Positions 8,356 to 40,074 of a DNA stretch of 64,000 nucleotides are shown piece by piece. The position numbers were made by a program, and so were the translations under genes. The notes under the pieces are model-generated. The model ran no database searches, was not told the origin of the DNA, and saw only the letters and a program-made list of their open reading frames with translations. The DNA lies in sequence record PZ445527.1, one strand, 5' to 3'. Numbering within the stretch: the first letter of the stretch is position 1; each line of letters opens with the position of its first letter. Source of the DNA: a phage.

Positions 8356-11205
8356 TTAAATAGTAGCCCAACTAACAGATTGTTCCCCACTTTCCCCTTC
8401 AGCTCGTATCCTAAATCGTAACTTACGATTGATACCTAGAGCACCTGAGTTCAGCAAAGCAAAATCCGCCTTATTATATGTTAATAGATAGTCATAAGTA
8501 TAGGCATCCTCTATCCTAATACTACGAAGCATTCTATCCTGAGAATCATGTATTTCTAGAGTGTAATAGATTTCTGGAATTATTTCTTCCTCAGGTATCT
8601 TATCCCAGGCAAGTTTCACATCTGGACCAACAAATTCAGTCACATCTCCAGAAGCTGTATTAGTTACTCTGAAGTTACTAACTACACTCAAGTTTCTAGC
8701 AGAGTTAAGATCCACGGAAAGAGTAACAGGAGAACTACGTCTACCGTTAATATCAACAGCACGTAGTTCAAAAATAGCTAAACCAGCAGGCTCACCTATA
8801 ATCTCCTGAATCATCCTTTCATTAGGATTATTCTCTAATTGCTGAATTATGTAAGGATCTACATGACCTGAATGAGCTATAGAGTAGTATACTACGTTAT
8901 TAGTAAGACTAGGTAGCCAAGATAGTTCCCCATTTTTACCTATAGCACCTATCATACCACCAGGAGTAGGAGTGTATTTAAAGTCTCTAGGAGGTAGAAC
9001 GTTATTACTAATATCAGGAATATCATTACCACTATTATCTACCTGTTCGGAATTAATAAATACATCTTCCCCGTACTCTTGGAGGACTAGATTAATTTTA
9101 CCATCACGAGTATTTTCTACTTCGTCAACCAGGAAGAACTTGTCTTTCCACCCATAACGCTCATAAGTAAACGCAATCGGATCATTTGGCTCTATACCAA
9201 TGAACTTATAAGGTACTGAGAAGCTAAGCGTACGTGAGTATCTAGATTTTTTAAGCTCTCTATCTGCGTAACTACGAGCAGTGTAGTAGTTAGTAATATT
9301 TGCAAAAGATAGCTGAAGTTTTTTATCCAAACCCTTATCTTGTTCTTTAAACTTAGAGTTATAGAATGTAATAGAGTTTGTTTTCCAACTTAGCGCAGGG
9401 TCTACTAAGGATGCTTGTACTGAGTTAAATTTATTTCTACCAGTAGTATCAGATAAGTCTAAGTCCCCATAAGTATCCAGAAAACTTATCTTCAGAGGAG
9501 TTGTAGAATGCTTCTCTACAGTTATTCTATACTCACCAGATAAGTTATTTATAGCTCCGCCAAAAGAATCCAGTACTCCTTGAACATTTTTAAATACTGA
9601 TTCGGAAGTATCTAATATAGTGTTTAACTGAACTACTTGGCGATGTTCAGAAATAGAATCACTCCAACCAACATATCTCCAATATGGTTGCCAGCTAACC
9701 TGATAAGATTCATCAATTATATCTAGAATTTTTGCTTCTGATATAATCTTTTGTAGGGGGAACTGATCTAGAGTTATATTAGCCCCATAACGTTCAGAGG
9801 TTAGATAGTCCATAAGCTGCCAGATACCGTTAAGGCTAGTTTTATCAGCTTTAACAGACCCATCAGAACTATATACTTTGACTTTCTTACCTTGTACTTC
9901 AGCACTAATTTCTGGAATTTCAGTTCTGTTCTCATTAATAGTAAATCTAACTACAGCGTAGGCTGTGTCTAAGAGCTTATAACGAGAATCCCAGTATTCT
10001 GGTCCATTGCCGTTTTGATTCTGTAAATAGAAACCTTTTCTTTTAGCAATATCCACTAATACTTGAGCTGCTGTCTGGTCTGGTTTGCCATGAAAGGTCC
10101 ATATTCTTATGTCACCATTACCATCATTATACTTATACTCTTGCCCATGAACAGAAGGTTGAGAAGTACTTGTACCAGCAGCTAGTCTATGCATTGTATC
10201 ACCCACTAGTTTCTTACGACCGAAACAGGTTCTAGCATTGGAATCCGTTTCATCGAAACAGATCATTGGGCTGTCCCCAATATAGAAATCTAGGAATCCG
10301 TCAATTTCTCCTTCCGAAAAAGCATAAACTACATACACTATATTAGGGTTATTTAGCTCAGTATCTGCAAAAATAGGGATACCAGGAATTTTCTGAACCC
10401 CATATACAACAGGTATAAATTTAGCAGCTAAGTTAAAGTCTAAATCAACTTCTTTAGTTACAGTCTCATAATACTTTTTAAGACTGTAACTTCTTGATAG
10501 ACCAAAGAGTTTCTTCTTGGACTGAAGTTTATAGCGTTCTTCTTTAACTTGGTATTTAGCTAAGATAGTGGTACTTTTATTAGAGTGGAAGAATCCATAG
10601 TCTTCTTGATATTCAGGACGTTTAGCACCATTAGAAGGCTGTAATTGTCCATTAACAACTTCAAGTCCTCGGTGAGAAGCATCATCGGTATAACGACCAT
10701 TCACCCTATCAAAGTCGTAGAACTGGTTGGAACAGTTCCATGTGATAACAGAGGTTCCTATTCCTGAAGTAGTAACATTATCTTTTATTCCGCCTCCGGT
10801 AATTCTACCACGGAAGAATAATAAAGGGCCGTCTGTACTAGGATCTACTGGAAGAATATTTCCTTCTTCATCAATTATTGCTTGATGTATAGTAATAGTT
10901 CTATCTAAGAAAGATACCCCATTTTGAACTAGTTTTAATACTTCATCTTCTGCTGTACCAGTTATAGTGAAAGATAAACTACCAATAGATAATTGGCGGT
11001 TCTGCTTATGGGAGCTTATACTTTTTACTTTACCTGATCTATATAAGATCCCGTTATAAGTAACATCTCTAAAGTAGTCAGTTAAATAAATATAAGTAGC
11101 AGCAGAGCCAGATGAACTAGGAAGCTCTAAAGCTATAAGACAAGCTGTTTTTAGCTTGTCATGAGTATTAAGATATGTTTTAGCACTATCGAGTATCTGC
11201 TTCAT
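8356..11205 (-). CDS. baseplate hub protein (pb3-like)
   Basis: 949 aa; located between distal tail protein and pb4-like genes. Confidence 0.7.
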   Translation of the reverse strand: MKQILDSAKTYLNTHDKLKTACLIALELPSSSGSAATYIYLTDYFRDVTYNGILYRSGKVKSISSHKQNRQLSIGSLSFTITGTAEDEVLKLVQNGVSFLDRTITIHQAIIDEEGNILPVDPSTDGPLLFFRGRITGGGIKDNVTTSGIGTSVITWNCSNQFYDFDRVNGRYTDDASHRGLEVVNGQLQPSNGAKRPEYQEDYGFFHSNKSTTILAKYQVKEERYKLQSKKKLFGLSRSYSLKKYYETVTKEVDLDFNLAAKFIPVVYGVQKIPGIPIFADTELNNPNIVYVVYAFSEGEIDGFLDFYIGDSPMICFDETDSNARTCFGRKKLVGDTMHRLAAGTSTSQPSVHGQEYKYNDGNGDIRIWTFHGKPDQTAAQVLVDIAKRKGFYLQNQNGNGPEYWDSRYKLLDTAYAVVRFTINENRTEIPEISAEVQGKKVKVYSSDGSVKADKTSLNGIWQLMDYLTSERYGANITLDQFPLQKIISEAKILDIIDESYQVSWQPYWRYVGWSDSISEHRQVVQLNTILDTSESVFKNVQGVLDSFGGAINNLSGEYRITVEKHSTTPLKISFLDTYGDLDLSDTTGRNKFNSVQASLVDPALSWKTNSITFYNSKFKEQDKGLDKKLQLSFANITNYYTARSYADRELKKSRYSRTLSFSVPYKFIGIEPNDPIAFTYERYGWKDKFFLVDEVENTRDGKINLVLQEYGEDVFINSEQVDNSGNDIPDISNNVLPPRDFKYTPTPGGMIGAIGKNGELSWLPSLTNNVVYYSIAHSGHVDPYIIQQLENNPNERMIQEIIGEPAGLAIFELRAVDINGRRSSPVTLSVDLNSARNLSVVSNFRVTNTASGDVTEFVGPDVKLAWDKIPEEEIIPEIYYTLEIHDSQDRMLRSIRIEDAYTYDYLLTYNKADFALLNSGALGINRKLRFRIRAEGESGEQSVSWATI

Positions 11206-27151: not shown

Positions 27152-28939
27152 TTAGGTAAGGCGTTGAATTGTTACTCTTAATCTAGGTAAGAAGACGGCG
27201 GCGGATTCATTTGCATGTATAACTACACCCAACTCAGCGTTACCGTTACCCAAATTTTTAATAGTATAAATAAACCCACTTCTAGTAAATGTTAAGTCAT
27301 CTGGTCGACTAGCCCACTGTTGTGTATAACTATAGGAAGCTGTAGTATGAAATGGCACCAAATGATTAGGAGGTAGAGTTAATATTTGATGAAATATCCC
27401 ATCACCTCCTGTATAACTTTGCTGCCTTCTCCCCTGCACCTGCCATGCAGTGCCACCATATGTTCGTATAGGACCCCCTGCTGTATTAAGGTTTCCAGCA
27501 ACCACCTCAGTAGTTAGGATTACTGTAGAGTTTGCATTTGGTAGCCCAAGACTTACTGTGGATAAGGCTACATACTTATTACCTGTACCTGGGTAAGAAG
27601 GGTTTATGTCATCACCTATGTAAGTACTAGCTACGTTATTCGGTAGTAATCGTAAAGGTACTGAAGAAGGCCCCCAAACGACCCCGTGCTCATTACCTAT
27701 AGTATTATTGTTGGAATTAACATACCATTGTTTACCGGCAGAGAATTTGTAAATACTTATCTGAGACTTAGAACCCCCATAATTTACGGGAGACCATAGA
27801 GAGCCATTATTAGACCCCACAATTTCGCATCTTGCTGTAGTATCTCCAAATACTCCAGTATAAGCAACGTTATTTCCAATATATTCCATATCAGGTCTAG
27901 ATGATAAGTTACCAAAGGCATTCTGATTAATGAATTTGTAACTAGTATTTGGAAGACTAACACCTTTTATAGTAAAGTTAGAGGGGCTTATAAGAATATC
28001 GGATCCAGTAAATGGGTTACTAGCAACGCTCATACCACCATTAGAATATCTAAGGTTCAGCACATACCAGATAACTTTGGTTGGAGTAATATTATAACTA
28101 TCTTGCACATACTGCTTCTTTGCTGCTTGTGATGCTAAGTTAGACGTTGAGCCTCTACATACATAAACCTTATCTGGATAGGTTGAAGAATTATATAGTA
28201 CACTAACATTACTTGGCGTAGTACCCTTTTTACCAGCGTATCCACGTATATTGGAGTTACAAACATAAAACCAAGTATGCCCCCTTTTCCCCGCCCCTAT
28301 AGGAGCCTGCCAGTTAGGGTGCCAGAAGTCAACATTACCACTATTTATCGATACTTTAGATGCTCCGGCTGGAAATCCTGCTAGAGTCCACGCTCTGCCC
28401 ATAGCTTCGGCGGCGTACGCCCCTCCTGGTCTGTATAAGTTAAACCCAGAAGCCTGTGATATAGTACCGCCAGTACCTTGTCTAGCTATTGATTCTTCAT
28501 GCCCTAGACTAGAGTTATAAGTATAAGTACCATGTGCTAAACTATTACCAGATGCAAAAGCTGATGTAAGACCTACTTCAGCACCAGCCCTACCAATAGG
28601 AGGGTCTTCAAAAAATGCAAGAAATTGTCCAACCTGGGATTGAGTACCGTTCAAAAAACCACGATGAGTACCATTAATTTCAACAGCGGTTAGTATAACT
28701 CTACCAGGATCGTTGCTCTTTAGATTAGCTATTACAGAAGGCATTTGGCACACAAAGAACCCATTACCCGCGTTACTTAATGCACTCTCATACGTACTCT
28801 CGACTAGAACAAATGGCATATCAGAATGAAATATAGTATTGGCGTTAGGAGTTTTGTGAGCATTAATATCCCCACCATTCACCTTGTTTAGTGATAATAC
28901 AGTTTTACCATCACTATATTTTCCAGCGAAAAAACCCAT
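27152..28939 (-). CDS. receptor-binding tail protein (pb5-like)
   Basis: 595 aa Gly/Ser/Thr/Asn-rich; divergently paired with lipoprotein gene as in T5 oad-llp. Confidence 0.65.
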
Positions 28940-28964
28940 ATAATCTCCTATTATAAAAATGTAT

Positions 28965-28993
28965 TTGCTTTCATCCCTCTATTTTGCTATAAT
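28965..28993 (+). promoter_or_regulatory. sigma70-like promoter for llp-like gene
   Basis: extended -10 TGcTATAAT (28985-28993), -35-like TTTGCT 17 nt upstream, RBS GGAGAG before ATG 29025. Confidence 0.5.
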
Positions 28994-29024
28994 ATATTCA
29001 TAAATTAGAAATGGAGAGATAAAT

Positions 29025-29291
29025 ATGAAAAAGTTTGTGACTGCACTAGTTGCCGCAGTTATGTTATCTGGTTGTGCACCTGCCCCCAAACCATTTTGTA
29101 CGGGATTTGTAAAATCTTTTGGTGGTGCGGGAGAGGAACATTACGGCCTCAAGGTTCAAAAAGTTCGTATTAAGGGAGATCGCTTTCCAGTAGTACAGCT
29201 CCGTACTAAATTTGGGTGGTGGGATCTCAGTCAGTTTGACCTTAAATATGGTGATTGTAAATTTAAACTAGAGCAATCTAATTACCTGTAA
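29025..29291 (+). CDS. llp: Llp-like lipoprotein (candidate receptor-blocking superinfection exclusion)
   Basis: 88 aa; signal peptide with lipobox LSGC; divergent from receptor-binding protein gene. Confidence 0.65.
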   Translation: MKKFVTALVAAVMLSGCAPAPKPFCTGFVKSFGGAGEEHYGLKVQKVRIKGDRFPVVQLRTKFGWWDLSQFDLKYGDCKFKLEQSNYL

Positions 29292-29467
29292 TTAGTATAA
29301 AGCAAAAAGACATCTAAGTAAACTAAATTTTTTATTTCTTGGATGGTGTACTGGCAGAAACCACTATATGAGAAAAGTTGAAGTCCTTCTAGGAGTTCAC
29401 AGGCACGGTTGGTTGCGCACAAATTGTAGAATATTTTAAATACCACACTTATAGGAGCATAAAAGAT

Positions 29468-30132: not shown

Positions 30133-30243
30133 TTGACTTTTGCCAAATTCTTTGGATTACGTACGCGTGGGTGTGCTCACTACCTCCGGCGAAAATACTT
30201 AGTCTCCTAACCGCCACCCCCGTTACTATTATCATGCTAACTG

Positions 30244-30280
30244 TTTCACCCTGCAACCATTTTAATTGCAAGGTGAAACA
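30244..30280. terminator. long hairpin between convergent genes (candidate bidirectional terminator)
   Basis: GTTTCACCCTGCAA-ccattttaa-TTGCAAGGTGAAAC, 14-bp stem with one mismatch. Confidence 0.5.
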
Positions 30281-30296
30281 ATTTCAACTTTAATTA

Positions 30297-31031
30297 TTAT
30301 GCGACTTTTAGTTTCTCAATATATTGTTGCGGGCTGCAACTATATTCTGCGCGTTCTTCCTCGGTCATACTTTCCCAACATAATTGCAAACGGTCGGCTA
30401 GGAACTGATAATCATTATCATCGTCGAGAGATTCATCGATAAAGGTTTCACCTATCAATGTAACGCCGATTGATAGAATATCGTTAACGGCTTGCGCGTC
30501 CAGCGTTTTAAATCCGTATGATGCCGCCGCCGCCAATACTCCTTTATGGTCGTCGATCATCGTGAAATCAGCGTTCGGATATAGCTGCTTAAATAACTCA
30601 AAATAATGGCTTTTATATATAGCGTCTTTACTGTGGTATATTTCGCTAACTTTATCAGCTTCAAAATATTTATGTAGTGTATCGCGGGAAAATACACGGA
30701 TATTACTATCCCCACGCCCTCGCAGTCCTTGCTTGCGTAGGTAATAATAATCTGATTTGCTCATTAGTCGAGCGGTGCAAATAATGTTTAACGTGTTGGC
30801 GTCATTCATGCATTGGCGCATATATGTAACAAGCGGCAATAGTGTGTCTTGCATTATTAAATCATGTTTACACGCTTCATTCTTATACTTATTTAGATCT
30901 AGATTGCCCTCACTATCAAAGCAAGGCGCTACGCGATGGAATGAATTAACGACCGTGCCGTCAAGATCCCAAATCATGACGCGGGAAATATGCGGGAAAT
31001 TACGGGTAATATTCGTTTTAACTTGATTCAT
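30297..31031 (-). CDS. dmp: 5'-deoxyribonucleotidase (HAD family), T5 Dmp-like
   Basis: 244 aa; HAD motif I WDLDGTVV; size matches T5 Dmp. Confidence 0.8.
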   Translation of the reverse strand: MNQVKTNITRNFPHISRVMIWDLDGTVVNSFHRVAPCFDSEGNLDLNKYKNEACKHDLIMQDTLLPLVTYMRQCMNDANTLNIICTARLMSKSDYYYLRKQGLRGRGDSNIRVFSRDTLHKYFEADKVSEIYHSKDAIYKSHYFELFKQLYPNADFTMIDDHKGVLAAAASYGFKTLDAQAVNDILSIGVTLIGETFIDESLDDDNDYQFLADRLQLCWESMTEEERAEYSCSPQQYIEKLKVA

Positions 31032-31105
31032 TTTGTTACGTTCTCCATTAAAGGGATTAAATTAAATTAATTCAGCCCACTGGATGGGCTGGACTATTCC
31101 AGCTA

Positions 31106-31501
31106 TTAAAGGCCAGACGCTAACGCATCAGCGATGACGGTAATATCTTCGCCCGATACGCTGGAACGAATCCCCGCACAAGTATATACTTTTGCGCTCG
31201 CTAGCTGGTCATCAAGGCAAGCGGGGCAAGGCGTGACAACTGCAAAGGCTAACCCTGATTTCACCGCGTCAATAATGGTCGTTTCCTGCTTCATCGTGTC
31301 AATGTAAACGCCTTTCGCCTTGATGCGGCTGGATAGTTTGCCCGTGGTATAGGCGAAAGTAGTGATCTGTAGCGCCTCATTAAACTCGATTAAATCATCG
31401 ACAACGTGACCGGCCTCAACGTGATACCGCTCACCATTAGAATAAACCAGAACGATAGAAGACTGAGCGCGATCGAATGGAATACGGTTAGAAATAGCCA
31501 T
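31106..31501 (-). CDS. hypothetical pre-early protein
   Basis: 131 aa ORF between dmp and A1. Confidence 0.5.
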   Translation of the reverse strand: MAISNRIPFDRAQSSIVLVYSNGERYHVEAGHVVDDLIEFNEALQITTFAYTTGKLSSRIKAKGVYIDTMKQETTIIDAVKSGLAFAVVTPCPACLDDQLASAKVYTCAGIRSSVSGEDITVIADALASGL

Positions 31502-31570
31502 TTTTATAACTCCAATTAATTTAATAAACTTTTATAGGGGCGGTATATTTCAACCGCCAACCTGATTTAT

Positions 31571-33235
31571 TTACGCAAAAAATTTACCGTTCTTAAAGTC
31601 GATCAAAGTGCGCTGACCGTTTGCATAGGTAATTAAATGCGTTTGCGTCCAGCTTGACGCGCCAACGTTGTAACCCATGTCCAGACTACCAGCCACGCCG
31701 GCGGTATATACCCCGCCGTAAATGCTGGCGGTATGAGTGTGCCCCGTGTTTAATTTGCCCAATTTCTTAAATTGCTTCGGATTGCCGCGGCTCCCGTTTA
31801 TGCCATTGTGACCGTGTACGCCGCACTCAATGCCTGCAATCTTGAAAGATTGGTCAGTCGTTAGAAAAATGGCGTTAAATTCACAACCTGCAACCTTGCG
31901 CAACGCATAATCAAGCACGTTGAAAGTATCGTCTTTTTCTGCAATAGCTCCGTAAATTGCAGCATTAAGGCGGTGATATAGTTCCGCGTTCGCTGGGTCG
32001 TCTTTAATGTTAGCATTACGATCATCAAGCCAACGGGATAGCGCCAAATCGTGATTCGATTCAACAATGATTGTTTGAGAAAAATCGCGCTCCATCGATT
32101 CCAGCACGCGACCGGTATCGATAAGATCATCCAGAATTTTATCACGTCCAGCGGCGTACTGTTTTGCTAGGAATACACCGCTGGCGCGATTGTGATGGTT
32201 GCGTGATGTAAAATCATGCACGTCATGCACGAATTGATATTTTGGTTTAAGAATATCAAGCAAGCTATTTTCGCCAGCCCATGACGCTGCGGCGCAATCG
32301 TCATCTAATTTTTCGGCGTGTATGTCACCATATTGCAAGCCTAAAACATGCCCCGACGTTTCATAGCATCCGGCGGGAGTGGCGCAAATATTCAAATCGT
32401 AAAACACGCCGCTTTCATCCATCGTTTCAAGCTGGCGAACAAAAAATTCTCCGTCTTCGTCGAACTCGACAACAAGCGCGCCAAAGTTATGCAGCGCCTC
32501 CGCTTTCTGTCCTGCTTTCTGCTGGATGTAATTTTTTAGCGTTGCCGTTCCGGTTGAATACATACGGCGCACTACTTCACCTTTTAAAGCTGGAACGCTT
32601 TCGGCGGTGATTTTAGCCGCTCCAATTGCCAGACCTTCAAGATTAAGCGCGGTTGCAGTTTCAGCGAATCCAGAAAGCGGATAGTCTGCGGTAGGTAAAA
32701 CGTTAATTTCAGCCATGAAAGCAAAGCGGCGGTTATTTAAAAATACATTCTTATTGCAGATATATTTGTCAAAAGCGGAATCATATTTGATTCCGTTGGC
32801 GCCCTCGCCATTTTGAAAACCGTTTTTGTTATAAATAAACTTGCTAACCAGCAAATCAGCGCCGATAAATTGGGCATATTGCTCCAGTGAGGCCAAAAAG
32901 TTTTTATGCGGGAACGTATTATTCTGAATCGATGTAATAATAAAGCGTTTTCCCTGCTTTACTTCCCATTGCTCGATCGTGCTAGAAATAACTCCAGCGG
33001 CTTCAGGGCGGTCATCGTTTTTTATGGCTTTTGCTACTTTCGCCGCTTTTGGTTTCGCTGGTTTATTTGCTTCCAGCCAGTCACAAATCGCAGTGGAATG
33101 TTTTGCAGTATCGTAAACCGCTTTTGATATATCGTCGCATACTTCCAGCTTAGTAGCGCGCAGACGTTTACCGTAGAAATTGAAATCAGCGGCAAGGTTG
33201 AGGATCTGGGTTTGTTTTTCTGCGGAAATAACCAT
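31571..33235 (-). CDS. A1: A1-like pre-early protein (calcineurin-like metallophosphoesterase / nuclease)
   Basis: 554 aa; metallophosphatase motifs GDIHAE, HDVHDF, ESNHD, GHTH. Confidence 0.8.
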   Translation of the reverse strand: MVISAEKQTQILNLAADFNFYGKRLRATKLEVCDDISKAVYDTAKHSTAICDWLEANKPAKPKAAKVAKAIKNDDRPEAAGVISSTIEQWEVKQGKRFIITSIQNNTFPHKNFLASLEQYAQFIGADLLVSKFIYNKNGFQNGEGANGIKYDSAFDKYICNKNVFLNNRRFAFMAEINVLPTADYPLSGFAETATALNLEGLAIGAAKITAESVPALKGEVVRRMYSTGTATLKNYIQQKAGQKAEALHNFGALVVEFDEDGEFFVRQLETMDESGVFYDLNICATPAGCYETSGHVLGLQYGDIHAEKLDDDCAAASWAGENSLLDILKPKYQFVHDVHDFTSRNHHNRASGVFLAKQYAAGRDKILDDLIDTGRVLESMERDFSQTIIVESNHDLALSRWLDDRNANIKDDPANAELYHRLNAAIYGAIAEKDDTFNVLDYALRKVAGCEFNAIFLTTDQSFKIAGIECGVHGHNGINGSRGNPKQFKKLGKLNTGHTHTASIYGGVYTAGVAGSLDMGYNVGASSWTQTHLITYANGQRTLIDFKNGKFFA

Positions 33236-33332
33236 AATAATAAAACTCCATTAAAGGGATTAAAAACGTTTGTTATTGGCAAATATTGCCAGATATAACG
33301 CCTCAAATAATAGGCGTTATAATTTGCAATAT

Positions 33333-33548
33333 TTAACTAATTGGCATTAGGCTAGAACTAACCCCACAAGCAATGGCGGCTATTAAACAAAGTAAGCCCA
33401 ACCGCTTTGCTAATTTAGCTTTACGCTTAAAATAATACGAATCCAGATCATTTTGGAAGTATGCAAATAATAATGAGGCCGCCATAATAAATAAGCCTAG
33501 AATGAGGGATTCAGTAGGGTAAAAGACCATTTTAATAACTCCAGTCAA
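33333..33548 (-). CDS. small membrane protein
   Basis: 71 aa, two predicted TM helices. Confidence 0.4.
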   Translation of the reverse strand: MTGVIKMVFYPTESLILGLFIMAASLLFAYFQNDLDSYYFKRKAKLAKRLGLLCLIAAIACGVSSSLMPIS

Positions 33549-33586
33549 AGGAAATTATAGCGGGGAATATTCCCCGCTAATTAAAT

Positions 33587-33994
33587 TTATTCGCCTGCGG
33601 CTTGTTTTACTTCATCGGCAACGCCTAACAGCTGCGCCACGGCGTCCAGCGTTTCTAATTTTGCGCTTTCCAGGGATGCCAGATCGTCAACGTCTTTGAT
33701 AATGCCGGAATCAATGGCATGTTTTGCAATAACGCGCACGTAATGCGCTTTGCGGATAGAACTACCGCCGCCAACTTTGCGCGGCTTATCGCTTTTCTGA
33801 TACGCTTTCGCGCTGGTCAATTTTGAGCGAACGGACACGGGAGAAGTCGCGCCAACTGCTTTTGCAATTTCTCTCAGGCCGTCGCTGTTGGCGAACTCCA
33901 AGCCGTTCTCATTGATTAGCTGTTGATACATGGTAACAGCCTGCTGGGTGTTTTCTTCATTCCAAGAGAATTTTGCGGTTTTAACGTTAGTCAT
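33587..33994 (-). CDS. A2: A2-like pre-early DNA-binding protein
   Basis: 135 aa; position upstream of A1 as in T5. Confidence 0.65.
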   Translation of the reverse strand: MTNVKTAKFSWNEENTQQAVTMYQQLINENGLEFANSDGLREIAKAVGATSPVSVRSKLTSAKAYQKSDKPRKVGGGSSIRKAHYVRVIAKHAIDSGIIKDVDDLASLESAKLETLDAVAQLLGVADEVKQAAGE

Positions 33995-34090
33995 GATATA
34001 AACTCCAATTAATTTAATTTAAGGGATAAGATTAACACAATGTTAATCGTTATATACCCCGAACTGCTGGGGTATATAAAGTTAACACTA

Positions 34091-34342
34091 TTACGCTACA
34101 GCTTCCCATTTTTCGTTACGTTGAACAACCTTTACAACGTCGCCGGATTTAACGCGAACGTTATAAATAGTTTTCCCGTTGTTACTCCGTTCCGTTTCAG
34201 CGTAAACCGCATCAATTACATCAAACGGCATAAGCGACGCGCCTTTAATGCGTTCGGCTTTTCCGGTTAGTTCATCCGTTTTAGTAACGAAAGGAATGAA
34301 GACGGATTGACCAATTTTCGGCGCATTAGTAACGTTTTTCAT
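34091..34342 (-). CDS. hypothetical pre-early protein
   Basis: 83 aa ORF upstream of A2. Confidence 0.45.
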   Translation of the reverse strand: MKNVTNAPKIGQSVFIPFVTKTDELTGKAERIKGASLMPFDVIDAVYAETERSNNGKTIYNVRVKSGDVVKVVQRNEKWEAVA

Positions 34343-34569
34343 AGTATAAACTCCAGTTTATTTCGTGGATTGTTCCGCATTACCTGCTAAAAAGTAACAG
34401 GTAATAAGAAAAAATCCGCTCGCCAATATAATCAATTTAAAGAACTCCACTCAGGCCGCTATATCCCGTTAGGGGGCGGGGCACATTTTGGCAAGTACCG
34501 GCCGTCAAATTGTATCAAGTTATCGCTCTTATCGAACTGGGTACATCTTAAAGCCTATCGGCTAGGGTG

Positions 34570-34773
34570 TCAAACTATTTTTTGCAGTTTTTTATGATTT
34601 TCCTTCAGGTCGATCATAATATTTCGCCAGATCATTTCTAGACCTTGCTGGCGGCCTTTCTTGTACTGCTTAAATCGATATTTTACCGATCTTTGCGCTA
34701 TTGTCAATAGCTTTCTAGTATTGCCATCCAGTTTTTTGGCTGGTTTACCAGTGACTAATAAAGTTTGTTTCAT
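34570..34773 (-). CDS. hypothetical basic protein
   Basis: 67 aa Lys/Arg-rich ORF. Confidence 0.3.
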   Translation of the reverse strand: MKQTLLVTGKPAKKLDGNTRKLLTIAQRSVKYRFKQYKKGRQQGLEMIWRNIMIDLKENHKKLQKIV

Positions 34774-35446
34774 ATCTGCGATCCCTTATAATGTAATAAG
34801 TTTGCCGCCGATAGACTTTAAGATATACCCAATTTTTAAAGAGCGCGGCGGTAAACTTCCCGCCGTGTAGTTCGTCATTGCCGCCCTACGAGATAAATAA
34901 TAACAAATGCCAAAAATGGCGCAACCTTATTTTTGTAAAGAAACGTAAAGAAAGCAAATACTCGCACCGCGTCCGGCGATTGCCCAAGTTTAAAGGAAAC
35001 GGGCGCGCGGATACCATAAAATCCAGCAGATAGGCAAGTAATTTTTTCATTTATATTTGCCTTGCCCTACTTGATTTTTCTAGAATCCATCAGGTGACGA
35101 TAAACGGGCTATCCCTTTATGATGGGATACCTGAAAAATTTACCTCGTTGTAGGACGTTTTAGGCCGCTTATTTTCGAGTTAACAAATATTTAACAAAAG
35201 CAAAATTGAAAAATAGTTGTAAAAGGTATTGACTTTTAAAAATCAAGATTAAACGAGTTATTTTATAAAATTAATTAATTGACTTTTATTTGTTGTTGTG
35301 TACTAGAAAGATAGCAGACTAATAATTACTAGAATGATAATCATGCTGGTGGATTGTAACAGCCTGAACCATTAGCAGACTACTAATTCCGGAAAATCTC
35401 ATTAGCCAACTAACTATTTCCTGAGTTATAATATAAACATAAATTA

Positions 35447-35600
35447 ATGAGAAATAATAACTATAAAAATAATCACCATTATAATAATAACTATAAAAAT
35501 AATAACTATAAAAATAATCGCCATTATAATAATAATTATAAAAATAATCGCCATTATAATAATAACTATAAAAATAATCACCATTATAATAATAACTATA
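35447..35600. repeat. tandem direct repeats, about 26-27 bp unit, about 5.5 copies
   Basis: unit ATAATAA(C/T)TATAAAAATAATC(A/G)CCATT repeated head to tail. Confidence 0.85.
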
Positions 35601-35639
35601 AGAAACTATCGGTCTAAGTGAGAATCACTATCATTTAAG

Positions 35640-35721
35640 TTATTCACAAAGTTATCCACAGCACAAAATGATTTGACACGATAGGCGGCGATATAAGGGC
35701 TTATCCACAGACTTATCCACA
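35640..35721 (+). promoter_or_regulatory. cluster of DnaA boxes
   Basis: TTATTCACA (35640), TTATCCACA at 35652, 35701 and 35713 (three perfect consensus boxes), all same orientation. Confidence 0.75.
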
Positions 35722-36041
35722 GGTTTTCCTACTGTATAAATATACAGGGTAAAAAGGTAGTGTTAACGACTGCAATCAATTTTAAGCGGCCTAAATCGCT
35801 TTCTAACGAGCTAAATGATGCGGGGTAATATTAAAGTAAAGCCTCCACCCGTTGCCCTGGGTGAAGGGTATTGATATTTCTACTTTTACCGTTAACAACG
35901 AAAACGAGTAATAATTAACCTAATGTAAAGTTTTGTAAAGGTCGCCATAATCGGTGGCTTTTTTGTTATAATGCCCCTACACCGTTTGAGGACGGTTGAA
36001 AATTTTCCCAAAAAAATTTTGGAGGCTTAAAATGGTTGCGT

Positions 36042-36262
36042 ATTCTTCTTCTGACGCTCTTTTCACTGGAAAAGGCTGGGTATCAAATCGCTGGATCATT
36101 CAAGAAATGGTGCGGGAGTTCGGCATTGCTAAAACTTACACTACCATTCAGGCGCTTTATGATAATGATCAAATCGATCAGCAAACGGCGGGCTTTTTGC
36201 TGGATACCCTGAAGGCGGAACATTGTACTAAAAAACAAGCCGCCAAAATTGCTTTAATGTAA
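36042..36262 (+). CDS. hypothetical protein (73 aa)
   Basis: RBS GGAGG 6 nt upstream of ATG 36042; first gene of + strand cassette between inverted DnaA-box arms. Confidence 0.5.
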
Positions 36263-36304
36263 CTAATAACGGGGCGTTATTTTCGCCCCACTAACTAGGG
36301 GGGA

Positions 36305-36457
36305 ATGAAAATGGTTATTTTTCGATCAATTCTGGCGGGTATCTTGGGCGCTGTTTTATCACTTTTTGCCATAGCTTTCGGCGTTCACGCGGTTATTGTT
36401 GGCGCGGGTATCGCCGTTTTTTCTTATTTGCTGGGCTGCATGAGTAAAGGGGAATAA
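36305..36457 (+). CDS. small membrane protein (50 aa)
   Basis: two hydrophobic helices; G-rich RBS. Confidence 0.4.
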   Translation: MKMVIFRSILAGILGAVLSLFAIAFGVHAVIVGAGIAVFSYLLGCMSKGE

Positions 36458-36459
36458 AA

Positions 36460-36672
36460 ATGATCCGCAACGTTTCTCTTGCTCGTTCGAAAGGCTTTAA
36501 GCTGGTGGACGTTAACACGTTCGAGCGGGAAGATTGTAAAATTGAATATATAGCACGGAATAAAAACGCCTTCCGTGTTACTGAAAAGAAATTCGATAAG
36601 CGCGGCAACGTGATCGCTGAAACGGTTAGACACTTTGCCACCTTTTACGCGGCCTTTCGTGGGGTACTATGA
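36460..36672 (+). CDS. hypothetical protein (70 aa)
   Basis: ORF tightly packed after previous gene. Confidence 0.5.
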   Translation: MIRNVSLARSKGFKLVDVNTFEREDCKIEYIARNKNAFRVTEKKFDKRGNVIAETVRHFATFYAAFRGVL

Positions 36673-36794
36673 AAAGCGTTGTTATTGTTATCCTTGCAAT
36701 GGTTGGCGGTTTTACCGCCACCTTATTTAAGAATGATCCCCTTTCATTGGGGATTTTTATGCTTTTATCTGGTTACCTGATTGGGAGGTTATAA
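36669..36794 (+). CDS. small membrane protein (41 aa)
   Basis: ATGA start/stop overlap with previous ORF; TM helix. Confidence 0.4.
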   Translation: MKSVVIVILAMVGGFTATLFKNDPLSLGIFMLLSGYLIGRL

Positions 36795-36795
36795 A

Positions 36796-37140
36796 ATGGT
36801 AATTTATGAAGGCAATCGCTTTGTTACTAATTGCCGCCCGGCATTGTTAGCAAACTACTTAAACCAGCTTTCTCCTGAATATAAGGGCGTTGTTAATATT
36901 TACGAGGGAAAAGCGCATTATAAGATTAATGCGGTCGTTGCCCGTGAACTAGCGTTTCAATTTTTGACCTTTGCATCTTGTGATATTCAGGTCATGGGGG
37001 AGGCGTTAATCGCAGAAAATGAAAATGATTTTATTAATATTTTTCGCAAAGTATGCACCGAGCGCCTGATAATGAAAGGCGCATATATTCAATCCACTGC
37101 GGATAGTATTGAAACAGCGTTTCGAAAGGTGGCACAATGA
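36796..37140 (+). CDS. hypothetical protein (114 aa)
   Basis: RBS GGGAGG then ATG 36796. Confidence 0.5.
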   Translation: MVIYEGNRFVTNCRPALLANYLNQLSPEYKGVVNIYEGKAHYKINAVVARELAFQFLTFASCDIQVMGEALIAENENDFINIFRKVCTERLIMKGAYIQSTADSIETAFRKVAQ

Positions 37141-37155
37141 AATTATATATTTTCG

Positions 37156-37434
37156 TTGGTAATAGTAAGGCAGCTAATGATTCCGCTGGGGGCGATAACG
37201 TTCGCCACTATTGGCAAAAATATATTTACTAGGGTTATTATGAGCAATAAAATTATTATAACTAAAACTACCACAATGGTAGACGTTTTTTACGTGCCCG
37301 ATACGCCGGAAAACCGGCAAGCGGTCGAGCGGGGTGATTATGGTAGCGTTATTTATGATGCCGATGGCTATTATCGGCATTTGGTCGATTCCTATGGGGA
37401 AGAGGAGAAGATCACGCATCGACTACCAGACTAA
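37156..37434 (+). CDS. hypothetical protein
   Basis: 92 aa ORF, start uncertain. Confidence 0.35.
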   Translation: MVIVRQLMIPLGAITFATIGKNIFTRVIMSNKIIITKTTTMVDVFYVPDTPENRQAVERGDYGSVIYDADGYYRHLVDSYGEEEKITHRLPD

Positions 37435-37469
37435 TAATAACGGGGCGCAACTATCAGGGAGTGCCCCCA

Positions 37470-37507
37470 ATTCTCAAATGAGAATCATTCTCAAATGAGA
37501 ATGATTC
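37470..37507. repeat. overlapping near-perfect palindromes TCAAATGAGAAT(C/G)ATTCTCATTTGA
   Basis: dyad symmetry read directly; flanked by GGGGCGC...GTGCCCC inverted repeat. Confidence 0.8.
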
Positions 37508-37747
37508 TCATTTGACCGCGCCCGCGATGGTTAGCCTGCTAATGATTAGGGTGTTACGTGTCGCCTTGTGTGATCGTTAGCTCGCTAACTAATTTTCAAG
37601 CCTCCTCCAATTTTGCCCTTGTTTTAGTATCCCCGCCAAAATTAAACGCGTTAGAATGCGATTCAGGACGTTTTAGCGGTATATTAGAATTATTCACTGC
37701 ATAGGAATACTGTATAAATATACAGTAGAATAACCTGGGGATAAGTC

Positions 37748-37816
37748 TGTGGATAACGCTTCAAAATGGCTAGGATTCTGTCAAGTCAAATCGTGCTGTT
37801 GATAAGTCTGTGGATA
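37748..37816 (-). promoter_or_regulatory. DnaA boxes in inverted orientation
   Basis: TGTGGATAA at 37748-37756 and 37808-37816 (reverse complement of TTATCCACA), preceded by palindrome TACTGTATAAATATACAGTA (37708-37727). Confidence 0.75.
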
Positions 37817-37839
37817 ACTTAAATAACAGTGTTTCTCAC

Positions 37840-38047
37840 TTCCGTTTTTAAATGCGAATCATTATCATTCGTATTCCACTATCTAACCGATAATCATTCC
37901 ACTTTTTAAATGAGAATCGTTTCACTTCTTGAATAGTTCTCATTCCCTTTCTTAAATGCGAATAATTATCATTCGCATTTCACTTTTTAAATGAGATTGA
38001 TTCTCATTATCATTCGCATTCAGGCGAGCAGGGCAATTGCCCTGCGC
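37840..38047. repeat. array of AATG(C/A)GAAT...ATTCGCATT palindromic motifs ending in perfect 18-bp palindrome GCAGGGCAATTGCCCTGC
   Basis: repeated TTTTTAAATG(A/C)GAAT units and dyad-symmetric AATGCGAATAATTATCATTCGCATT. Confidence 0.75.
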
Positions 38048-38050
38048 TTT

Positions 38051-38276
38051 TGTGCAAATCCGACATCTGCTCCAAGGGTTACGTGCTGGCGTGTATGTGC
38101 AAATCCGACAATTTTTGGTAGTGTGCAAATCCGACCCGAAAAATTTTTATAGTGTGCAAATCCGACGACGAATCTGTCTCCCAAAAACTCCAGCAATCAC
38201 GAACTGCGTTCGAATCCTGTGGGATATGTGCAAATCCGACATGGTTTTTCTAGGATTAAGATGTGCGAATCCGACA
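38051..38276 (+). repeat. six direct 14-mer iterons GTGCAAATCCGACA (one variant GTGCGAATCCGACA)
   Basis: copies at 38051, 38097, 38123, 38154, 38228, 38263; irregular 25-75 bp spacing; same orientation. Confidence 0.85.
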
Positions 38277-38605
38277 AGATTTTTGTGACTTCGATTGAAG
38301 GGTGTGTGATTGTGTGGGTTTGAGGAGAAGATGAGAGAGCGAGAGAAATTTTGGGACTAGAAGGATGTGGGCGCAGGATTGGTGCGGAGCACCTGATTTG
38401 CGGGGATTTTGGGGAAGATGTGGGATAATTTGGGAAGATTTGAGATAGGTGCAGAAAAAGTGAAATTTTATTAGCAAAATGGGGCAAAATAGCTTGACAA
38501 GTGAAAATTTCTGTGGCTCTAAAAACTCAGGCAATCATGGGCCTTCGGCCCGAAATAATGCTGCTATTTTCAGGAGAGTAGGAGTTCCTAAAAACTTAGG
38601 CGTTT

Positions 38606-38654
38606 GTGCAAATCCTACCATAAATTTCTAGAATATCAATGTGCAAATCCGACA
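38606..38654 (+). repeat. two further copies of the 14-mer iteron
   Basis: GTGCAAATCCTAC (38606) and GTGCAAATCCGACA (38641). Confidence 0.8.
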
Positions 38655-38694
38655 GTAATTTCTGGAAATGTGTTTTCGAAAAATGTCTCCTAGA

Positions 38695-38770
38695 AATAAC
38701 CGCCCTCCCTATAACCGCCCTATATTAACCGCCTATTGCTAGAGTTTCTAGGAACAATGAAAACCGCCTG
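38695..38770 (+). repeat. four direct AACCGCC heptamer repeats
   Basis: ATAACCGCCCTCC, ATAACCGCCCTAT, TTAACCGCCTATT, AAAACCGCCTGAG. Confidence 0.6.
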
Positions 38771-39189
38771 AGTTGACTAAAGTTTTCATAAAAACTTAGG
38801 AGTCTAGAAGAAAGTGTTGTGCCATCCTAGCAGATGAGCGGCAACAGGTGTATCATCTTGAATGTAAATTATATGGTCAAAAGTTTTACTTTTATTTTAA
38901 ATATAAGATCCCCCAGGGTTCTCATATAGAGCTTTGCCCCCGCCAGAAGGTCTCGTGATGTTTCTAGCAATTTATATTAAATTACTTATTAACTTGTCCT
39001 GTCGCTCCGTATCCTCCGCTACAAGTTAGTAATTTTAAATTACTGAACCACCACACCTTCTGTGTGGCAACTCTAAATGGTTAATTCTATTAACTCATAG
39101 AGTTATGATAACATACATTTAGCTATCTGTCAACGAAAGTTTGTATTTGAGTCTCGGTACAGGTATTGTGCACCGAGACATGCAGAGTA

Positions 39190-40074
39190 TTATAATAATT
39201 CTTGGTATGCTTTTTGATACGCCTCAGTATCTGTAGGTGTATCTTTTGCTAACGCAATTAGTTCATCTGTTATCTGAACATTCGTACTATAACGTTGGTG
39301 GAACTCTTCTGGGATTTCTAGGTATCTATTTATGAACGCTGCAGCAAGCGGTGTAACTAACCCAATTTCTAGGGATAACTTAACTTGTTTCTCATAAATT
39401 AAATATTGAGAGTCAGATGGGGTTGGTGGGGTTACATCAACTTTTTCTGGTTCTTTTTCTGGAAGCAATGGATTGTTATACAATGCTTCATCTGGAAGCA
39501 CAGATTTACGCTCTTTAAATATATAAGTTTCTAGATCCGATGCTTTAGATCCTGAGTAAACAGCGAAGATGCTAGCTTTACCTTGAGATGCCCTAACTGG
39601 TAAGTAACTAGTAGGATAGCTCCTTAATGCATCGTGGAATGGACTTCCTGAGTATTTGTACGTATCCCCATAGAGATCATCAATATTCATTCGTTCATCT
39701 TCAAAGATATGGAAAGAGCTAAATGATGGAATGGTGAAGTATTCCATCTGTAACCCATAAACTAAGAAACGATGTGCATATGCGCTAATCTTTAAGACTG
39801 TAAATGCTTTCTCACCTTCTTTATAAGAATTGCCCTTTGAAGTAACTTGATAACGCTTACAAAACATCTCTACTAGACGTTTCTCATTAATATTGAGTGA
39901 GGAATATAAACGTCCATTTAGCCCTAGAAGGGCATCAAACATAAATGCTAACTTATCTTTTTCTTCTTGGGACAGTTCTGGAAATGGTAATACTTTCGCA
40001 TTAGGAACATTATTGTTCTCTTTAGGTTTTGTTTTACCAGCATTTTGTCTTAGCTTATCTTTAAAGTTATACAT
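39190..40074 (-). CDS. hypothetical early protein
   Basis: 294 aa ORF, first early gene next to repeat region. Confidence 0.55.
   Translation of the reverse strand: MYNFKDKLRQNAGKTKPKENNNVPNAKVLPFPELSQEEKDKLAFMFDALLGLNGRLYSSLNINEKRLVEMFCKRYQVTSKGNSYKEGEKAFTVLKISAYAHRFLVYGLQMEYFTIPSFSSFHIFEDERMNIDDLYGDTYKYSGSPFHDALRSYPTSYLPVRASQGKASIFAVYSGSKASDLETYIFKERKSVLPDEALYNNPLLPEKEPEKVDVTPPTPSDSQYLIYEKQVKLSLEIGLVTPLAAAFINRYLEIPEEFHQRYSTNVQITDELIALAKDTPTDTEAYQKAYQELL

Follow-up and report, generated by a model that had tools for sequence, protein, structure and literature searches.

The arrest of phage T5 after injection of 8% of its genome, and the restart of the transfer, have been a question since the 1960s, and the region treated here is the accepted candidate for the cis-signal. 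In the RefSeq record of T5 (NC_005859), positions 9140..10149 are annotated as 'injection stop signal (iss)', with a major single-strand interruption at 9748/9749. Davison (bioRxiv 10.1101/866236) compared 25 T5-like phages and named the stretch 'Repeat Region 3'. It was described as containing the palindromes palC-palJ, an IRD'-spacer-IRC' element with paired DnaA boxes, the repeats DRE1/DRE2 (66 base pairs, bp), four copies of DRC and nine of DRD, and the shear point of the first-step DNA was estimated at 7.9%, about 9618 in AY587007, within DRE2. The pre-early protein A2 is a DNA-binding dimer needed for second-step transfer.

Here we describe the corresponding region, positions 37440-38047, of a 64,000-nucleotide (nt) stretch of phage DNA (sequence record PZ445527.1), which is called the window below. 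A preliminary description of this sequence had read the 608-bp region as one array of operator-like palindromes, typical of sites for a dimeric repressor or structural protein and possibly halting the first-step transfer or controlling the pre-early to early switch. Taken as a whole, we consider it fairly probable that the region is a mosaic of the T5 iss type, in which the A+T-rich dyads are sites for a dimeric protein, most likely the host iron repressor Fur, together with a core of LexA and DnaA boxes and with the palindrome palJ, which would combine a terminator with a nick motif.

Identity with the T5 injection stop region

Searches with the region 37400-38700 matched 448 phage records, all of them T5-like (Demerecviridae), and the top match was Escherichia phage VAH1 with 94%. 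Window 37620-38720 aligned nearly gap-free with the T5 iss, with 94% identity across 441 bp (37620-38060). This alignment to T5 9140..10149 is matched with the location given in the preliminary description, between the pre-early genes and the iterons, and bears out the comparison with the T5 injection stop that it had suggested. Because of the homology with the T5 iss and the matching repeats of Davison, the region is identified as the T5-type iss, or Repeat Region 3, of this phage, a feature already described since 1987. The dyad units noticed before are the DRC/DRE repeats together with palE-palI, the 'iteron array' is DRD, and the 18-bp palindrome is most probably palJ.

The likeness with the T5 region (Heusterspreute et al. 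1987; Wang et al. 2005; Davison 2020) includes the placement between the last rightward pre-early open reading frame (ORF) and the right end of the repeat, and also the order of the elements: palD, pairs of DnaA boxes, DRE/DRC dyad units, palJ, nick and DRD iterons. There are two differences. This phage has an extra module of about 150 bp (37440-37620) with a doubled dyad, whose place in T5 is taken by ORF T5.017 together with a G+C-rich terminator, and the unit composition of the array is slightly unlike.

By BLAST of both T5 ends, the long terminal repeat (the DNA of the first transfer step) spans about 30174..38519 in a single (collapsed) copy. T5 position 5 corresponds to window 30178, and T5 121750, the end of the right repeat, corresponds to window 38519. 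Late genes (portal, terminase) extend to about 27.2 kb, followed by the terminal repeat and then by early genes rightward. Since late genes, one copy of the repeat and early genes stand in series, the window is a collapsed or circularly joined assembly of a T5-like phage. The last pre-early ORF (37156-37434) immediately precedes the studied region, which is located 470-1080 bp before the right boundary of the repeat, and A1 (31571-33235) and A2 (33587-33994) are encoded upstream of this region.

The reading of 37440-38047 as one palindrome array could not be kept, as 37516-37839 holds TTAGC dyads, a LexA-type palindrome and pairs of DnaA boxes instead. By its sequence the region is better described as a mosaic of five kinds of elements, namely an optional module, the core, the dyad array, palJ with the nick motif, and the DRD iterons.

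Half-site behaviour of the dyad units

The array of dyad units, CTTTTTAAATG(A/C)GAAT(C/G)ATT(C/A)TCATT (DRC/DRE, palE-palI), was located at 37845..38021 with a repeat finder and half-site counts. Full dyads are found at 37850-37876, 37954-37980 and 37989-38009, and partial units at 37889-37899, 37908-37921, 37931-37944 and 38004-38021. The repeated units reported earlier for 37840-38020 are real: the repeat finder gave five copies of the 25-nt unit TTTTTAAATG(A/C)GAAT(C/G)ATT... in 37840-38022, with seven in the whole family. There is also a 67-nt direct repeat (37833-37899 and 37937-38003, 79% identical), and the shear point estimated by Davison maps inside the array. Exact AATGMGAAT/ATTCKCATT half-sites were counted nine times in the 608-bp region against two in the other 63.4 kb, and dinucleotide shuffles of the region had 0.05 such sites on average and never more than 1.

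The region was aligned in 18 enterobacterial T5-like sequences, consisting of the window and 17 relatives. The relatives were taken from a phage collection and a search by neighbouring genes; an exact DnaA-box pattern used in IMG/VR gave mostly unrelated contigs. The expected conservation of the dyad motif in related genomes was confirmed. Between the DnaA boxes and palJ there are as few as three units (Klebsiella phages) and as many as about 11 (two Salmonella/Escherichia relatives), and the unit consensus is retained. Because of this variation in number, the array aligns less well than any other block (81% identity, compared with 92% for the DnaA/LexA core), though the motif itself is conserved.

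The two arms of a dyad vary independently, and almost no compensatory pairs were found in the A+T-rich dyads across the 18 phages. At the paired columns 37959/37975 of palE, the combinations were CG in five phages, AG in six, CT in five, CA in one and AT in one, and in palI 36 of 180 cells were mismatched. Independent variation of the arms, together with gain and loss of units under a constant motif, indicates that the AATG(A/C)GAAT dyads behave as protein half-sites and not as hairpins. The earlier proposal of sites for dimeric proteins is therefore retained for these dyads, on these grounds and on the match with Fur operators given below, and it is given up for palJ, which is a hairpin with a nick motif.

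Within the array we detected only weak promoter-like matches (9 of 12 positions); there is no downstream gene, and the T5 annotation has no promoter here. The classical reading as operators over a promoter was dropped for these weak matches.

Match of the dyads to the Fur operator model

The Fur operator is reportedly a 7-1-7 motif, TGATAAT-N-ATTATCA. The phage units read TGAGAAT-N-ATTCTCA or TGCGAAT-C-ATTATCA. A 19-bp Fur matrix was made from 12 Fur-regulated promoters, namely fepA-fes, entS, entC, fhuA, fecI, fecA, cirA, fiu, tonB, exbB and ryhB of strain MG1655 and iucA of a ColV-type plasmid. In leave-one-out scoring, the true operators reached 9.2-22.3 bits with a mean of 16.4. The phage dyads reached 22.0, 22.0, 20.7, 19.7, 19.1 and 18.0 bits, which is as high as real operators. 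Nine hits of at least 14 bits were located in the 608-bp region (1000 dinucleotide shuffles: mean 0.05, maximum 2), eight in the remainder of the 64-kb window, and two in 83 kb of E. coli DNA beyond the known Fur promoters. Of four Fur promoters held out, three were detected, namely sufA (18.9 bits), fhuF (21.0) and feoA (14.5), and fhuE (10.5) was missed. When a second matrix was made from 79 distinct phage units, its column correlation with the Fur matrix was 14.4 of 19, a value reached by none of 2000 column-shuffled Fur matrices.

The arrangement of the hits is also matched with Fur operators. The Fur hits of the array (12.5-20.7 bits) form groups with an offset of 6 bp, at 37848/37854, 37952/37958/37964 and 37987/37993/37999, and the first dyad group of the region shows the same offset at 37474/37480 and 37491/37497. 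This hexamer phasing is typical of Fur and was also observed in the entS, entC, sufA and fhuF operators. The variant half-sites of the phage occur in real operators as well: AATGAGAA in iucA, entC and exbB, and CATTCTC in fhuA, fecI and ryhB. The G and T bases contacted by Arg57 and Tyr56 of Fur are retained in the phage units. Moreover, the 13-mer AATGAGAATCATT, the core of the phage unit, is present in identical form in the aerobactin (iucA) promoter region, where the matrix puts its best site; the 43-nt aerobactin promoter sequence that contains it was matched in 791 plasmids with 100% identity, at a distance of 20 bp upstream of iucA.

Compared with the E. coli Fur operators (extended iucA, entS, entC, fhuF), the phage sites thus share 7-1-7 dyads, overlaps offset by 6 bp, adjacent sites in a row and equal matrix scores. 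They differ in having no recognisable promoter, in 6-12 units instead of 1-3, in a preference for G over T and in a conserved T-rich flank, and their binding by Fur is a prediction.

Other host proteins were compared by eye on the basis of consensus sequences. CRP was dropped on spacing (TGAGA-N5-TCTCA against TGTGA-N6-TCACA) and Zur because only the outer AAATG/CATTT matches; ArgR and IHF were considered and dropped as well. Elsewhere in the terminal repeat, the Fur matrix gave 21.2 and 17.8 bits for GGAACTGATAATCATTATCATCGTC at window 30401-30425 (T5 228-252). This stretch of the dmp gene, about 230 bp away from the left repeat end, is also conserved in T5, with 16.2 bits for the second of the overlapping sites.

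Host factor or phage protein

The same dyad clusters were found in long non-coding gaps of unrelated large myoviruses of four genera which have no A2 homologue. Phapecoctavirus ukendt has seven Fur hits of at least 14 bits with a maximum of 23.4 (L123 2476-2590 = NC_052661 27694-27808), and at the same threshold Vequintavirus JES2013 has four, Certrevirus CR9 eight and Mydovirus KB57 three. Homologues of A2 (PHROG 1725, 'DNA binding protein') are confined to Demerecviridae by tblastn. The DNA-binding protein encoded beside the CR9 cluster falls in a different PHROG and is unrelated to A2. A phage protein shared by T5-like phages and myoviruses was rejected for these two reasons. In addition, the Pectobacterium T5-like phage My1 has a four-dyad cluster elsewhere in its repeat. 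The presence of the same dyads in A2-free myoviruses, the unrelated CR9 protein and the My1 cluster together favour a binding factor supplied by the host, and Fur would be such a factor.

The myovirus clusters have some features of their own. Besides the one in L123, they are located at L151 1539-1700, L152 1460-1580 and L153 1494-1545, each with three to eight dyads, and the phages are virulent (hosts Escherichia, Cronobacter and Klebsiella). After every cluster there is a G+C-rich element (…GGGCAGGCCCGGTG(A/T)TTGTCTC…) that is conserved, together with a hexamer resembling TATAAT. They carry no annotation, except in JES2013, where ORF185 is annotated across the cluster.

Several points weigh against Fur. 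Only 12 sites make up the Fur matrix, and it was seeded with the published consensus. The phage units have 77% G where the Fur matrix has 25% G (GAGAAT/GCGAAT against GATAAT), a position at which Fur sites prefer T, and the units carry a conserved T-rich CACTTTTT flank outside the Fur consensus; because of this G preference and this flank, a different protein of related specificity is possible. No recognisable promoter, such as an operator under iron and Fur control would have, was found overlapping or adjoining the dyads. T5 destroys the host DNA within minutes, so it is hard to see a regulatory logic in the use of an iron sensor. A protein bound to DNA that has entered the cell should promote further entry rather than arrest it, unless an anchor holds the complex in place. 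The Phapecoctavirus cluster is 85% similar over 55 bp and shares the unusual GAGATT variant, and this similarity may come from horizontal transfer and not from independent selection. Finally, in Vibrio phage VCPH (AP014889; L124 3150-3300) about ten tandem copies of GCAACTGTTGC replace the array between the DnaA boxes and the iterons. The Vibrio Fur consensus is the same, so this exchange looks more like co-evolution with a phage protein.

Such a protein could be A2. The dyads would then be operators of the A2 dimer, alone or with A1, and the binding would release the pause or direct adjacent cleavage by A1/A2, leading to the second step. We consider this unlikely, though several facts agree with it. 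A2 is essential for the second-step transfer, is reported as a DNA-binding dimer and is encoded in the window at 33587-33994, and Davison proposes palD-palJ as candidate A1/A2 sites. The different palindrome array at the same position of the Vibrio relative, whose A2 has its closest relatives at only about 41% identity, is what co-evolution of protein and site would give. However, the Klebsiella relatives, with an A2 of 65% identity, and the Pectobacterium relatives keep the same motif, and the four myovirus genera have the dyad clusters without A2. No sequence specificity of A2 is reported in the literature covered. The AlphaFold model of A2 (predicted local distance difference test score, pLDDT, 85) is all-helical, and Foldseek against PDB gave no match below E = 0.7, so the model is silent on specificity and the fold was dropped as a clue. 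A Pfam search of A1, A2 and the last two pre-early ORFs gave no hit.

Weighing both sides, binding of the dyads by Fur with a selected function is a tentative reading, with a real chance of being right that we put somewhat short of even; simple binding of Fur in vitro would be more probable.

Hairpins, the palindrome palJ and the nick site

The palindromes could also act as structures, either as cruciforms or hairpins hindering the passage of DNA, or as serial weak intrinsic terminators (hairpin plus CACUUUUU) which keep the host RNA polymerase from transcribing, and thereby pulling in, the DNA past the first-step region. Every full dyad can fold. The folding energies were -27.9 kcal/mol for 37470-37520 (z = -9.6) and -9.5 kcal/mol for palE (z = -4.3), and the whole array folded as single-stranded DNA gave z = -6.3. 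Both palE and palJ were flagged by the terminator scan with a T-run after each. Such folding is a consequence of dyad symmetry and is no evidence of function. The mismatches in the A+T-rich dyads are as frequent as under independent variation, many units are half-sites only, and the stems have two or three G-C pairs. The first-step pause also needs neither transcription nor protein synthesis. Selection for hairpins was therefore rejected for the A+T-rich dyads for want of covariation, and was accepted for palJ only. A structural role is good for palJ and poor for the dyad array, and as an explanation of the region it is improbable. An Rfam scan of 35300-39300 with E up to 1 gave nothing relevant, and its sole hit, at 36147, was due to chance.

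The perfect 18-bp palindrome GCAGGGCAATTGCCCTGC (palJ) is present as described before, with its coordinates corrected from 38027-38044 to 38028..38045 (plus strand). The terminator scan gave seven pairs, six of them G-C, with the T-rich tail GCTTTTGTG, and the RNA fold had -16.5 kcal/mol. In one relative (L137) there is a double change, GCAGAGCAATTGCTCTGC, which is compensatory from G:C to A:T and keeps the pairing. Four Epseptimavirus relatives have an insertion of 6-7 nt at the centre with intact arms, and palJ is absent in Klebsiella phages, which lack its left arm. The compensatory change and the tolerated loop insertion mean that palJ evolves like a hairpin, which fits a terminator-like element and is unlike a dimer operator with fixed spacing. 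Its G+C-rich stem of seven pairs and T-run are those of a rho-independent terminator; the difference from such terminators is that the tail has only four T, which makes the efficiency uncertain.

The right arm of palJ together with the next two bases is CCCTGCGC, that is GCGCAGGG on the minus strand (38040..38047), the motif of the T5 nick sites. The three T5 nick sites compared (7.9%, 18.5% and 32.6%) all read Pu|GCGCAGGG, in agreement with the consensus Pu|GCGC, and the other two differ in having no palindrome at the nick. CTGCGCTT is invariant in 18 of 18 aligned phages, including the Klebsiella phages without the left arm of palJ. From the shared GCGCAGGG and the homologous T5 interruption at 9748/9749, the 7.9% nick of this phage is predicted on the minus strand between 38047 and 38048, at the end of the studied region. 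In T5, the 32.6% nick (L154 27179-27248 = T5 39678-39747) is located 26 bp past an annotated 'efficient bidirectional terminator', which parallels the 7.9% nick at the foot of palJ, and the 18.5% nick is within a gene and has no hairpin.

LexA-type box and DnaA boxes

The core (37621-37839) is the best-conserved non-coding block, with 92% mean identity. It contains the palindrome TACTGTATAAATATACAGTA (palD of Davison) at 37708..37727, which agrees in 19 of 20 positions with the E. coli LexA (SOS) box consensus TACTGTATATATATACAGTA. This box is nearly invariant in the 18 phages, with three single-base changes, and is kept in the Klebsiella, Pectobacterium and Vibrio relatives. The promoter scan found no convincing promoter overlapping it. 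Two pairs of DnaA boxes follow on the minus strand as part of the IRD'-spacer-IRC' core (37736..37817). The first pair is TGGGGATAA (37736-37744) and TGTGGATAA (37748-37756), and the second is TGTTGATAA (37797-37805) and TGTGGATAA (37809-37817).

The inverted partner of this core (IRC-spacer-IRD) is also present, 35616-35747 being an inverted repeat of 37710-37840. It contains four consensus DnaA boxes and a second LexA-like box, TACTGTATAAATATACAGGG (35730-35749), with 17 of 20 positions of the consensus. With up to five mismatches, no LexA-like site besides these two was found in the 64 kb. There is accordingly one near-consensus LexA box in each inverted DnaA-box region of the terminal repeat. 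Just left of IRC-spacer-IRD, A+T-rich tandem repeats (TATAAAAATAATCACCATTATAATAATAAC...) at 35450-35600, probably Davison's Repeat Region 1/2, gave several Fur matrix hits of 13-16 bits.

The core resembles DnaA clusters of oriC type in its consensus TTATCCACA boxes, which are paired 3 bp apart, and LexA operators in its CTGT-N8-ACAG palindrome. It differs from them in its placement between dyad groups and in having no known replication start or SOS-controlled gene. LexA, SOS and Fur are nowhere mentioned in Davison's text. A full-text search, whose coverage did not extend to Davison's 2015 review, found no literature linking Fur or LexA to the first-step DNA of T5, or Fur boxes to rV5-like phages.

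The optional module and its doubled palindrome

The left part of the region begins with a G+C-rich hairpin, GGGGCGC...GTGCCCC (37443..37469, plus strand), the stem of the operon terminator (RNA fold -15.6 kcal/mol, z = -3.0). Relatives without the module have the same stem followed by TTTT. Behind it, two Fur-box-like TGAGAAT-N-ATTCTCA dyads, spaced 17 bp, are at 37474..37515, with Fur matrix scores of 22.0, 19.7 and 22.0 bits. The overlapping palindromes noticed before at 37470-37507 were confirmed here and extended to a perfect inverted repeat, TCAAATGAGAATCATTCTCA AA TGAGAATGATTCTCATTTGA, with 20-nt arms and a gap of 2 nt, which is the longest in the 64-kb window. This 42-nt palindrome results from a 17-bp tandem duplication, found only in the window among the 18 sequences, and the relatives with the module have one copy of the dyad, AAATGAGAAT-G/C-ATTCTCATTT.

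The remainder of the module (37516..37620) is present or absent as a block among relatives. It includes two TTAGC-NN-GCTAA dyads, the palindrome TTAGC-CT-GCTAA at 37531-37542 and GTTAGC-TC-GCTAAC followed by TAATTTT at 37576-37596. In both, the stem is conserved and the 2-nt centre is variable. The second one with its TAATTTT may be the module's own terminator.

The whole module of about 150 bp is present in eight relatives and absent from T5 and six others. The phages without it have a plain terminator hairpin and TTTT instead, and T5 has an ORF and another terminator. Vibrio phage VCPH keeps the module dyad at the same position (CAAATGAGAATAGTTCTCATTTGACCGCGCCCG, 18.7 bits with the Fur matrix), and for this reason the module is judged to be old. 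T5 performs the two-step transfer without the module, so the module cannot be required for the stop, and the palindromes at 37470-37515 had to be abandoned as an essential stop element.

Iterons and other features of the window

The iterons TGTGCAAATCCGACA (DRD) are located at 38051..38654 on the plus strand, with seven in family D2 of the repeat finder and one TGTGCGAATCCGAC variant at 38262, and are conserved in relatives. They flank the end of the terminal repeat and adjoin the studied region from outside. A strand-asymmetric stretch at 38301-38519 (G 36.5%, C 7.8%, 66% purine), with short repeats of the GGGAAGAT type, reaches as far as the position inferred for the right end of the repeat.

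It is very improbable that the repeat region is a replication origin, or a packaging or end-formation signal of the terminal repeat, instead of an injection signal: the oriC-like paired DnaA boxes, the eight TGTGCAAATCCGACA-type iterons flanking the repeat end and the G-rich, C-poor stretch reaching its boundary would suit this, but the T5 origins are mapped near the genome centre and replication genes are silent in the first step (Davison, bioRxiv 10.1101/866236), and the dyads lie 500-1000 bp from the repeat end, so that this explanation fits the iterons better than the dyads.

Outside the terminal repeat, 27200-29420, between the terminase genes and the repeat, has no match to T5, which encodes the receptor-binding protein pb5 and the lipoprotein Llp there. 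For this reason the phage may use a receptor other than FhuA.

Proposed role in DNA transfer

By their sequence, 7-1-7 symmetry and 6-bp-phased overlaps, the dyad units most likely recruit the host iron repressor Fur. Fur, DnaA and LexA together would load the last-entering few hundred bp of the first-step DNA with host proteins, and the complex could be anchored, for example by membrane-bound DnaA as Davison proposes. palJ would end the rightward pre-early transcription, and its right arm would serve as recognition motif of the 7.9% nick. As for the earlier suggestion that an element here halts the first-step transfer, the location agrees with it, and the dyads are not singled out as the cause from the DnaA-box core or the iterons. 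We speculate, as a doubtful proposal that we would not expect to hold, that the dyads are high-affinity Fur boxes forming a host-protein platform with the LexA and DnaA boxes, and that holo-Fur, and so the iron status of the cell, influences pause and restart. In a related view, the array would serve as a sink for host repressors which are set free by destruction of the host chromosome.

As a rediscovery of the iss, the result adds nothing new. The dissection gives separable parts, namely Fur-type dyads, a LexA-type box, DnaA boxes, a terminator hairpin fused to a nick motif, and a dispensable module, and the new and testable element is the reading of the dyads as Fur boxes. If Fur binds them, the mechanism of the two-step transfer would become directly approachable. 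If the reading is true, the Fur-box clusters of the virulent enterobacterial myoviruses would mean that lytic phages exploit the iron sensor of the host in a general way that has so far gone unrecognised.

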